From: Escherichia coli
Lineage (GTDB): Bacteria; Pseudomonadota; Gammaproteobacteria; Enterobacterales; Enterobacteriaceae
Assembly: GCF_003334785.1 (NCBI RefSeq)
Contig: NZ_QOWV01000017.1
DNA: 64,000 bases
Strand: one strand, 5' to 3'
The position numbers are program-made. The number at the start of each line of letters is the position of its first letter. Positions within the stretch are counted from its first letter, which is position 1. Shown piece by piece: positions 37,301-40,300 of this stretch.

Positions 37301-40300
37301 ATTTTGCCGTCCTGGCGTGTGTAACCGTTTTATCAAGGAATAAGCAGTATGCGTAAAATCGCATTAATTCTTGCGATGTTGTTGATCCCGTGCGTTTCAT
37401 TTGCCGGTTTGCTGGGCAGCAGTAGCTCTACCACGCCTGTGAGCAAAGAGTATAAGCAGCAGTTGATGGGATCCCCTGTCTACATCCAGATCTTCAAGGA
37501 AGAACGTACGCTCGATCTCTACGTCAAAATGGGCGAGCAATATCAACTGCTCGACAGCTATAAAATCTGTAAATATTCCGGCGGCTTAGGGCCAAAACAG
37601 CGTCAGGGCGATTTCAAAAGCCCGGAAGGGTTTTATAGCGTCCAGCGTAATCAGTTAAAACCAGACAGCCGTTACTACAAAGCGATTAATATTGGTTTCC
37701 CCAATGCCTATGACCGTGCGCATGGTTATGAAGGGAAATACCTGATGATCCACGGCGATTGTGTTTCCATCGGCTGCTACGCAATGACCAATCAGGGTAT
37801 TGATGAGATATTCCAGTTCGTTACTGGTGCGCTGGTGTTTGGTCAGCCGAGCGTGCAAGTGAGTATTTACCCGTTCCGCATGACCGACGCCAATATGAAG
37901 CGCCATAAATATTCCAACTTTAAGGACTTCTGGGAGCAACTGAAGCCGGGTTACGACTACTTTGAGCAAACCCGTAAGCCACCAACCGTTTCTGTGGTCA
38001 ATGGTCGTTACGTGGTCAGCAAGCCGTTAAGCCACGAAGTTGTGCAGCCACAACTGGCATCAAACTACACGCTCCCCGAGGCAAAATAAGCGCCATTCGC
38101 CTGGCATAATCTTTTGCCAGGTTTCATTGCCCGTCAGCGGCTGTGTTGCAATCACCGTGACCACATCATTCGGTGTGGTCTGCGAGCTGAAGTCGATTTC
38201 CACATCCTGATCCAGCAACGTTGCCACGCCAAACGGCGCGCGGCGGGTGATCCAGTGTAAATTAGTCGAGCAATACGCCATTACATAGCGCCCGTCCGAA
38301 AGCAGCATGTTGAAAACGCCCTTCTGCCGCAGTTCATCCGCCAGTGAGGCGATATATTTAAATACCGCCGCCATGTTGCCCGGTGTGCGCGGGTAACGCT
38401 GCGTTAATTTATGCAGGAGCCAGCAGAAGGCTTTTTCGCTGTCGGTTTCGCCTACCGGGCGGAAGTTGCCGGTTTCCAGTGATTTGTAGCCCGTCAGTTG
38501 TCCGTTATGGGCATAAGTCCAGTTACGCCCCCATAACTCGCGGGTAAATGGGTGAGTATTTTCCAGCGCCACCTCGCCCCGATTAGCCTGGCGAATATGA
38601 GCCACCACCGAACAGGATTTTATCGGGTAGTCCTGGACAAGTTTGGCGATGGGGGAATTAAAGCTGGGTTGTGGATCTTTAAATGTGCGACAGCCTTTAC
38701 CTTCGTAAAAGGTAATGCCCCAGCCATCTTTATGTGGCCCGGTTCCACCACCACGCTGTACAAGCCCGGTGAAACTAAAGCAGATATCGGTAGGGACGTT
38801 GGCGCTCATCCCGAGCAATTCGCACATGGGTAACCTCCACAACAGCGGGAGCGCATGGCCCCCGGCGAAGATTGATTTAAGAATTTTCAGGTCGGATGCG
38901 GCGTGAACGCATTATTCGGCCTACGGTTCGCGTACAGATTTGTAGGCATGATAAGACGCGTCAGCGTCGCATCAGGCATCAGCGCACAAATGCCGGATGC
39001 GGCGTAAACGTCTTATCCGGCCTACGCCAGACTTACTTAACCATCTCTTTTTCAATCAACTGGATCAGGATATGGATCACTTTAATGTGAATCTCCTGAA
39101 TGCGGTCGGCATAACCAAAGTGCGGTACGCGAATTTCGATATCCGCTGTGCCAGCCATTTTGCCGCCGTCTTTACCGGTCAGGGTGATCACTTTCATTCC
39201 CTTCTCACGCGCCGCTGCGATCGCTTTGATCACGTTTGCAGAGTTACCGGAGGTGGAGATCCCCAGCAGTACATCGCCTTCGCGACCTACCGCTTCAACG
39301 TAGCGGGAGAAAATATCATTGAAACCGAAATCATTACCGACGCAGGAAATATGACTAACGTCAGAAATAGCAATCGCCGGGTAGCCCGGACGGTTTTCAC
39401 GGTAGCGACCGGTCAACTCTTCGGCAAAGTGCATAGCGTCGCAATGGGAACCGCCGTTGCCGCAGGAAAGCACTTTGCCACCGGCTTTAAAGCTGTCTGC
39501 TAACAGGACCGCCGCGCGCTGAATGGCGTGAATATTGGCGTCATCTTTTAAAAAGTTAGCCAGCGTTTCCGCCGCTTCGTTCAGTTCGTTACGAATAAGA
39601 TCCTGGTACATGAGGATATCCTTCAGCATAAATGTAATAGACAAAATGCAGTGTACCGGATACCGCCAAAAGCGAGAAGTACGGGCAGGTGCTATGACCA
39701 GGACTTTTTGACCTGAAGTGCGGATAAAAACAGCAACAATGTGAGCTTTGTTGTAATTATATTGTAAACATATTGCTAAATGTTTTTACATCCACTACAA
39801 CCATATCATCACAAGTGGTCAGACCTCCTACAAGTAAGGGGCTTTTCGTTATGATGATTTTGAGTATTCTCGCTACGGTTGTCCTGCTCGGCGCGTTGTT
39901 CTATCACCGCGTGAGCTTATTTATCAGCAGTCTGATTTTGCTCGCCTGGACAGCCGCCCTCGGCGTTGCTGGTCTGTGGTCGGCGTGGGTACTGGTGCCT
40001 CTGGCCATTATCCTCGTGCCATTTAACTTTGCGCCTATGCGTAAGTCGATGATTTCCGCGCCGGTATTTCGCGGTTTCCGTAAGGTGATGCCGCCGATGT
40101 CGCGCACTGAGAAAGAAGCGATTGATGCGGGCACCACCTGGTGGGAGGGCGACTTGTTCCAGGGCAAGCCGGACTGGAAAAAGCTGCATAACTATCCGCA
40201 GCCGCGCCTGACCGCCGAAGAGCAAGCGTTTCTCGACGGCCCGGTAGAAGAAGCCTGCCGGATGGCGAATGATTTCCAGATCACCCATGAGCTGGCGGAT

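Follow-up and report, generated by a model that had tools for sequence, protein, structure and literature searches.

A 30-bp convergent overlap between yafJ and yafK (dpaA) in Escherichia coli: conservation across Enterobacterales, codon-level signatures and 3′ ends

The locus

The 64,000-nt stretch of Escherichia coli DNA analysed here, hereafter the window (contig NZ_QOWV01000017.1, assembly GCF_003334785.1), carries around 38 kb the gene order dinJ-yafQ-yafK / yafJ-gmhA / fadE, a region found in all 5,426 complete E. coli genomes; the subject of this report is the junction at which the convergent genes yafK and yafJ share their 3′ ends. The window strand is the reverse complement of MG1655, and coordinates are converted by window = 283154 − MG1655 coordinate, valid for window 25247 to 44056. 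In MG1655 (RefSeq NC_000913.3), yafJ occupies 244327..245094 (+) and dpaA, the yafK gene, 245065..245805 (−). The features of the junction are as follows.

37349..38089, plus strand: yafK (also dpaA or ldtF) coding sequence, 246 amino acids; open reading frame (ORF) list, RefSeq, homologues, PDB 8IKR
38060..38827, minus strand: yafJ coding sequence, 255 amino acids; ORF (ATG at 38827, MCELLGM...), RefSeq, homologues, PDB 1TE5
38060..38089, both strands: convergent, codon-aligned overlap of the two genes, phase 123:321, 30 bp; sequence, ORFs, RefSeq
39033..39611, minus strand: gmhA (lpcA), co-oriented neighbour upstream of yafJ; RefSeq

YafK, or DpaA, is an amidase of the YkuD fold that frees Lpp from peptidoglycan (PMC10653827), and its sequence in the window is identical to residues 20-246 of PDB 8IKR. 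The active enzyme studied was the recombinant form 20-246, and the crystal model, obtained from V8-trimmed protein, stops at residue 229 (PMC10653827). YafJ is a class II glutamine amidotransferase (PF13230) and unusually well conserved. Its homologues, mostly of 255 amino acids, share 73-99% identity over a range that extends from Escherichia to Vibrio and Aeromonas, and the alignment with the solved homologue PDB 1TE5 reaches residue 252. The homologues of YafK, too, agree in length and have a tail that can still be recognised.

The overlap and its spread

According to the sequence and the ORF list, yafK ends with TAA at 38087-38089 and yafJ with TGA at 38062-38060 on the minus strand. The first-pass annotation had placed the yafK stop 30 bp inside the 3′ end of the oppositely oriented yafJ, and the sequence and RefSeq MG1655 both agree with this placement. 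Knowledge of the frame settles the position of a stop, and homology confirms both frames up to their last residues; therefore, neither gene ends earlier, and both ORFs pass as real coding genes up to their stops. The crystal model ending at residue 229 might be taken to mean that one of the proteins terminates before the shared stretch and that the overlap is an artefact of annotation. Such an artefact is practically excluded: the frames fix the stops, in 86 genomes both proteins show conservation up to their ends together with signatures of two frames, the active enzyme studied extended to residue 246, and the end of the model reflects V8 trimming or disorder rather than translation.

A conservation scan with a YafK profile, using one genome per species, returned 80 loci from Enterobacteriaceae. 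Both genes were present in 78 of these, and in all 78 the overlap measured exactly 30 bp. When seven loci from other families are added, whose placement we take from standard taxonomy, the same length holds for 83 of 85 loci in Enterobacterales, including Erwinia, Pantoea, Hafnia, Photorhabdus and Musicola (one locus looked up for each). In Yersinia, YafJ is shorter by one residue, which reduces the overlap to 27 bp; in Serratia, YafJ is extended to 267 amino acids, which lengthens it to 66 bp (locus L085, 3739-3804). Further C-terminal extensions of YafJ exist outside the order, to 281 amino acids in Vibrio and 269 in Aeromonas, in addition to the 267 of Serratia. From these length variants it follows that the position of the yafJ stop has changed repeatedly, that of the yafK stop remaining opposite the codon for Leu247 of YafJ.

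Five outgroups from Gammaproteobacteria (Vibrio, Aeromonas, Agarivorans, Celerinatantimonas and Corallincola) possess yafJ without yafK downstream of it. In four of the five gmhA lies upstream of yafJ, fadE likewise lies upstream in four, and a convergent purN usually lies downstream of yafJ. The order fadE-gmhA-yafJ is the older one, conserved and ancestral. From the outgroups it follows that yafK beside yafJ is a trait of Enterobacterales and that the C-terminus of YafJ is the older feature. In Corallincola, which lacks yafK at this place, yafJ overlaps a different convergent gene, of the DUF3108 family, by 35 bp (locus L095, 3234-3268); thus, the 3′ end of yafJ has become overlapped independently at least two times. 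The far flank of yafK varies among relatives of the window (region 36652-37193): E. coli has dinJ-yafQ there, Erwinia, Pantoea and Musicola have a gene for a dinB-like polymerase IV, and Yersinia, Serratia, Hafnia and Photorhabdus have nqrA. Thus, yafK kept yafJ as its partner while its other side was rearranged.

Two reading frames in 30 base pairs

The last nine codons of yafK are antisense to the last nine codons of yafJ in exact codon register, and the marks of both proteins can be read from them. The yafJ stop is TGA in every locus, the stop of gmhA in the same loci being TAA (67), TGA (13) or TAG (5). It can be rationalized that TGA is kept because a change to TAA or TAG would turn Ser238 of YafK (TCA), which is invariant among homologues, into leucine. 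Conversely, the yafK stop is TAA or TAG, never TGA, and the codon opposite, that for Leu247 of YafJ, is TTA in 57 and CTA in 29 sequences, i.e. in 86 of 86; together these two codons make up 9.3% of the remaining 1,725 leucine codons of yafJ. Within the overlap, Phe248 and Gly251 of YafJ are invariant and Leu247 is nearly so, in homologues as distant as those of Vibrio and Aeromonas.

The entropy at third positions of yafJ drops from 1.02 bits in the adjoining 120 nt to 0.63 bits in the overlap; some additional constraint thus comes from the YafK frame. The corresponding flank coding for YafK alone was not used, since indels in the YafK tail make its entropy unreliable. The variants of this tail (residue 241 T/A/S, 243 P/T/S, 244 E/Q/K, 245 T/A) mostly match changes that are synonymous in yafJ. 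This pattern, together with the conservation of Leu247, Phe248 and Gly251 far outside Enterobacterales, means that YafJ dominates the constraint and that the YafK tail largely follows; the tail encoded by the overlap lies beyond residue 229, outside the DpaA crystal model. Should the yafK stop be lost, the next one in its frame would be met 56 codons further on. Taken together, the overlap is genuine, ancient and dual-coding, of the ordinary kind that arises by a shift of the stop codon. In the literature we met no earlier description of these codon-level marks for the yafJ/yafK pair.

Paired transcripts and readthrough

Three features relate to the transcripts of the two genes.

38064..38088, both strands: double-stranded RNA (dsRNA) duplexes of about 21 nt produced by RNase III from both sense mRNAs; PMC7373196 supplementary file 7
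38379, plus strand: peak of the Rho region for RNA from the yafK strand, 290 nt beyond the stop of yafK, antisense to yafJ
37549, minus strand: peak of the Rho region for RNA from the yafJ strand, 511 nt beyond the stop of yafJ, antisense to yafK

Huang et al. 2020 captured the products of RNase III with p19 and listed two duplexes labelled 'yafJ yafK' (PMC7373196). The first (MG1655 245068-245089/245066-245087) is represented by 1028/1027 reads, the second (245069-245090/245067-245088) by 756/1653 reads. In both, the strands are offset by 2 nt, as for 2-nt 3′ overhangs and as found at dsRNA loci of RNase III; their sequences are the sense strands of yafJ and yafK, and they lie wholly within the overlap. 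The per-gene tables of the same work give 145-189 captured reads for yafJ and 187-609 for yafK, and about 1-27 for the neighbours fadE, ivy, yafQ, dinJ and yafL. In total RNA, with the meaning of the columns deduced from the text of the paper, sense/antisense values are 71/17, 34/16 and 45/21 for yafJ and 130/12, 111/7 and 178/9 for yafK, the antisense values of neighbouring genes being 0.1-4.8. The antisense signal relative to the sense signal of the partner comes, as a rough ratio, to 12-14% over yafJ and 17-21% over yafK, which is consistent with substantial but incomplete stopping near each 3′ end.

Adams et al. 2021 mapped Rho regions at a resolution of about 800 nt and recorded one for each transcript: MG1655 244775 (−) on the yafK strand, with a Rho score of 6.55 (p = 2.8e-17), and 245605 (+) on the yafJ strand, with a score of 6.1 (p = 3e-16; PMC7815308 supplementary file 2). 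The regions are antisense to both genes; therefore, each transcript runs hundreds of nucleotides into its partner when Rho is inhibited. The statement of the first-pass annotation that the transcripts must read into each other is thus borne out by published data: duplexes are found in the overlap, antisense reads over both genes and Rho regions on both strands. Complementarity between the mRNAs of yafJ and yafK extends over at least the 30 bp, RNase III cleaves them, and Rho limits how far each runs on into its partner.

The text of PMC7373196 does not discuss the pair (0 occurrences), the supplements on transcriptional interference of PMC10349824 contain neither yafJ nor yafK, and the literature search found a single genome announcement naming both genes in its main text. 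As to discrete 3′ ends, the curated Term-seq table of Adams et al. holds none at MG1655 2448xx-2452xx (PMC7815308), and the TERMITe supplements have no 3′ end entry for yafJ/yafK.

It has to be considered whether the junction acts like an excludon, such that pairing of the mRNAs with RNase III cleavage, or collision of polymerases, sets gmhA-yafJ against yafK in mutual antagonism and explains why the overlap was retained. The duplexes lie exactly in the overlap, the captured reads exceed those of the neighbours 10-100 times, the overlap is conserved across Enterobacterales, and both flanking functions concern the cell envelope. Retention is, however, already explained by the dual-coding constraint: to lose the overlap, yafK would need a new upstream stop at the cost of a conserved tail, and the antisense frame of yafJ is nearly free of stops, so that the yafK frame would run on for 56 codons before meeting another. 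Furthermore, yafJ and yafK are co-expressed, with similar levels within the same samples (PMC7373196 tables), and in the proteomics of that work protein abundance in general showed no clear relation to cleavage by RNase III. An excludon-like device is for these reasons improbable.

A stem-loop behind the yafK stop

The first-pass annotation had argued that there is no room for separate terminators. This argument does not hold, since a terminator may sit within the coding sequence of the partner, and a conserved stem-loop lies inside yafJ, 10 nt past the yafK stop.

38099..38122, plus strand: conserved stem-loop GCCUGGCA-uaaucuuu-UGCCAGGU, 10 nt behind the stop of yafK; candidate for a weak intrinsic terminator or for a block to 3′-exonucleases
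38123..38129, plus strand: U-rich tail UUCAUUG (UUUCAUU with the closing U), encoded by yafJ Glu235 and Asn234

The element falls within yafJ codons 236-243, its arms corresponding to Thr236-Trp237-Gln238 and Met241-Pro242-Gly243. The stem comprises 8 bp, with five GC pairs among seven core pairs, and folds with −14.6 to −15.7 kcal/mol (z = −3.5). The tail reads TTTCATT or TTTCGTT in most loci, UUUCAUU containing five U in seven positions, with the three proximal U present, as compared with the run of 7-8 U that directly follows the stem of an intrinsic terminator. A scan for the terminator consensus did not call the stem-loop because a G-T pair lengthens the stem and thereby shortens the tail that is counted. 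Both arms carry CCWGG (CCTGG at 38100-38104, CCAGG at 38117-38121), the target of the Dcm methylase, giving two potential 5-methylcytosine sites in the palindrome. Rfam has no match in or near the overlap, only the REP/naRNA4 element upstream of yafJ described below.

All seven core pairs are kept in 62 of 79 distinct Enterobacterales sequences. In the alignment of 78 sequences, 89.5% of the cells pair, a value reached by none of 500 shuffles, the inner stem pairs covary (CG 19, UG 13, UA 9), and double changes occur in 16 cells of the stem. Two positions that the protein leaves free hardly ever depart from the base needed for pairing: for Pro242, 79 of 84 sequences use CCA, which is not the preferred codon (rank 4 among 100 four-fold sites, whose median entropy is 1.34 bits), and codon 236 ends in C in 77 of 79 sequences, also when it specifies another amino acid. 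The stem-loop hence constrains synonymous sites of yafJ. The helix is, moreover, specific for one strand: it pairs in 89.5% of cells as yafK-strand RNA versus 77.4% as yafJ-strand RNA, and 102 cells pair (through G-U) only in the former orientation versus eight only in the latter. The median fold is −14.6 kcal/mol across Enterobacterales versus −4.8 to −8.5 kcal/mol in the five outgroups without yafK, which keep 2-5 of 10 homologous stem pairs (n = 5).

Several points weigh against a role of this hairpin in RNA and against the picture of the junction as a whole. The tail is an imperfect U-tract. Among the seven core pairs, five use first or second codon positions of conserved residues, namely Trp237 (TGG) with Pro242 (CC) and Gly243 (GG) with codon 236, so that much of the conservation is constraint on the protein. 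Hafnia, Photorhabdus and three loci of Enterobacteriaceae retain the overlap but have a degraded hairpin. A discrete 3′ end at or near it is missing from the curated Term-seq and TERMITe tables, a weak negative because both genes are weakly expressed; the outgroup comparison covers five species only, and the sense and antisense columns used above were interpreted from the text of their source. Finally, RNAalifold returned no consensus pairs; this empty result is taken as a scoring artefact, since the named helix, evaluated directly with ViennaRNA, yields −14.5 kcal/mol and alifold with RIBOSUM scoring recovers it.

These points lead to the alternative that the stem-loop has no function in RNA and is a by-product of the YafJ motif T-W-x-x-x-x-P-G and of codon habits, with Rho alone terminating both transcripts. 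TGG is complementary to CCA and GG to CC, most pairs fall on the conserved codon positions just mentioned, Rho-dependent regions exist on both strands, no 3′ end is mapped to the hairpin, five loci have lost it while keeping the overlap, and even the outgroups can form 2-5 of the 10 pairs. On the other hand, a by-product accounts poorly for the two free positions nearly fixed for pairing, for the covariation of the inner pairs and for the strong strand bias of 102 wobble cells versus 8, and the five outgroups lacking yafK vary at codon 242 (CCA, CCG, ATT, CCA, CCT). On balance this alternative is rather unlikely.

The stem-loop can be compared with two classes of 3′ elements. Like an intrinsic terminator it is a stable, GC-rich stem-loop soon after a stop; a mapped, Rho-insensitive 3′ end is missing from the curated Term-seq and TERMITe tables, and readthrough on the yafK strand rises with bicyclomycin, although low expression limits the weight of this negative. 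Like a protective stem-loop, it has a weak U-tract and a Rho peak 290 nt downstream. An overlapping type of bidirectional terminator was reportedly put forward by Ju et al. in 2019, and a terminator of this type, in which head-on collisions of polymerases at a shared hairpin end both transcripts without Rho, would suit convergent genes whose 3′ ends both lie near a hairpin. The hairpin lies ahead of the yafJ stop, however, and termination there would leave a yafJ mRNA without a stop; bicyclomycin raises readthrough on both strands, which points to Rho dependence; the hairpin pairs less well as yafJ-strand RNA; and in the model the efficiency drops for weakly expressed pairs (10.1101/2022.10.23.513370), such as this one. 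Such a shared terminator is accordingly quite improbable.

The 3′ end of yafJ has no conserved structure of its own after the stop. A hairpin of 7 bp located 4 nt after the yafJ stop (38038-38055, minus strand, AGUUGUG-GCUG-CACAACU) was rejected as due to chance: it is encoded by the YafK codons Val-Val-Gln-Pro-Gln-Leu, all seven pairs occur in one of 84 distinct sequences, mostly with 2-4 kept, and the 63 nt past the stop have a median z of −1.4. Two terminator-like hits on the minus strand (38106-38091 and 38102-38088) were likewise discarded, being weak and situated inside yafJ ahead of its stop.

Proposed explanation and significance

The best explanation as a whole, to which we assign a probability of about 0.7, is an ancient dual-coding overlap with paired mRNAs and asymmetric 3′ ends that involve the stem-loop and Rho. 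Both coding sequences cover the 30 bp, and the mRNAs are because of this necessarily complementary there; they form dsRNA, and published data show its cleavage by RNase III. The yafK transcript may then be ended by the stem-loop and its short U-rich tail, acting as a weak intrinsic terminator, as a block to 3′-5′ exonucleases, or both, while the fraction reading through would be stopped by Rho a few hundred nucleotides on, in antisense yafJ. The yafJ transcript would depend on Rho alone and terminate within antisense yafK. The stem-loop probably defines or protects the yafK 3′ end, and on the whole the pairing probably has little effect on regulation.

A bolder proposal sees in the fixed overlap, combined with the hairpin specific for one strand, a post-transcriptional link under selection that would coordinate lipopolysaccharide (LPS) supply with outer-membrane tethering across Enterobacterales. 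If this were true, readthrough from gmhA-yafJ (LPS heptose synthesis) would pair with the 3′ end of the dpaA mRNA, and RNase III would tune the cutting of Lpp. We regard this as a long shot.

The feature is real and was already annotated, the pairing was already visible in published supplementary tables, and the arrangement is ordinary and known in kind. The present analysis makes a modest addition, namely the fixation of the overlap throughout the order, its codon-level signatures and the conserved, strand-specific stem-loop in yafJ. The junction is nevertheless a clean, documented example of a 30-bp convergent overlap frozen throughout one bacterial order in which the codon marks of two proteins remain legible, and it illustrates how a gene's 'missing' terminator can be encoded in the synonymous sites of its partner. 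There is also a practical side for those deleting or recoding yafJ or dpaA, as the last nine codons are shared and yafJ codons 236-243 probably bear the 3′ stem-loop of dpaA; a clean deletion of yafJ could therefore alter the expression of DpaA, and the reverse may hold.

Surroundings in the window

The window contains two further convergent overlaps, both of 4 bp with the sequence TTAA: yafS/rnhA at 57152-57155 and dkgB/yafC at 62720-62723. In the annotated MG1655 stretch that matches the window, 3 of 10 convergent pairs overlap.

Upstream of yafJ, an element of the repetitive extragenic palindromic (REP)/bacterial interspersed mosaic element (BIME) type, naRNA4 (RF02564), lies between gmhA and yafJ at window 38945-39022 on the minus strand, with an Rfam match of 74.1 bits versus a gathering score of 59.5 (48.6 bits on the reverse strand). 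The gap between gmhA and yafJ is merely 24-48 bp in Photorhabdus, Musicola and Pantoea; therefore, the E. coli element looks like an insertion into a former gmhA-yafJ operon junction.

The window is 99.98% identical to MG1655 and yet is not MG1655. The IS1 copy that splits crl in MG1655 (IS1I, 257908-258675) is missing, the alignment blocks abutting at window about 25247-25254; therefore, crl is probably intact here. Furthermore, about 9.5 kb (window 44056-53588), between the positions of yafV and yafU, have no counterpart in MG1655. The following features were assigned in this region.

43776-44912, minus strand: transposase of the ISAs1 family
45713-49792, minus strand: RHS core protein, 1359 amino acids
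49834-51117, plus strand: C-terminal fragment of TssM
51038-52480, plus strand: TssA-like ORF
52504-52986, plus strand: Hcp/TssD

The segment 44056-53588 looks like a remnant of type VI secretion that was lost from K-12 MG1655.

Comparison with known systems

Convergent overlaps are a well-described class in E. coli, counted as 58 by Lillo & Krakauer 2007 (PMC2174442) and as 75 in a further survey (PMC4161906). The phase 123:321 accounts for 32% of those longer than 4 bp (PMC2174442). The yafJ/yafK pair resembles this class in having opposite strands, shared 3′ ends and phase 123:321, and differs in its length of 30 bp, the commonest being 4 bp, and in boundaries that are fixed order-wide. Rho-independent terminators within the coding sequence of the convergent partner were recorded for 23 of 116 E. 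coli genes in such overlaps (PMC2174442). Like these, yafK has a GC-rich stem-loop and U residues shortly after its stop; in contrast to them, the tail is an imperfect UUUCAUU, no 3′ end is mapped, and readthrough downstream is sensitive to Rho.

Another class is that of the protective 3′ stem-loops of Rho-dependent transcripts described by Dar & Sorek 2018, at which termination by Rho further downstream is followed by trimming, by PNPase or RNase II (PMC6061677). The yafK element shares with them a stable stem-loop, a poor U-tract and Rho action a few hundred nucleotides on, but it is located in the coding sequence of another gene instead of an untranslated region, and by analogy it may play a corresponding role here. 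As for the cis-antisense dsRNA of Huang et al. (PMC7373196), the junction belongs to the set by its RNase III duplexes of about 21 nt listed as 'yafJ yafK'; the abundant clusters of that study are mostly divergent 5′ overlaps, with one convergent among the top 20, whereas yafJ/yafK is convergent.

The collision-type model of bidirectional terminators, exemplified by ynaJ-uspE, was set out in the preprint of Wang et al. (10.1101/2022.10.23.513370). Such terminators are intergenic and independent of Rho, with the hairpin downstream of both stops; the yafK hairpin, in contrast, sits inside yafJ before its stop, in codons 236-243, and both strands are Rho-dependent with significant Rho scores. In excludons, finally, the transcripts of neighbouring genes overlap and their expression is mutually exclusive (ExcludonFinder, PMC12288877). 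The yafJ and yafK transcripts likewise overlap on opposite strands with RNase III involved, but the two genes are co-expressed in the available samples.

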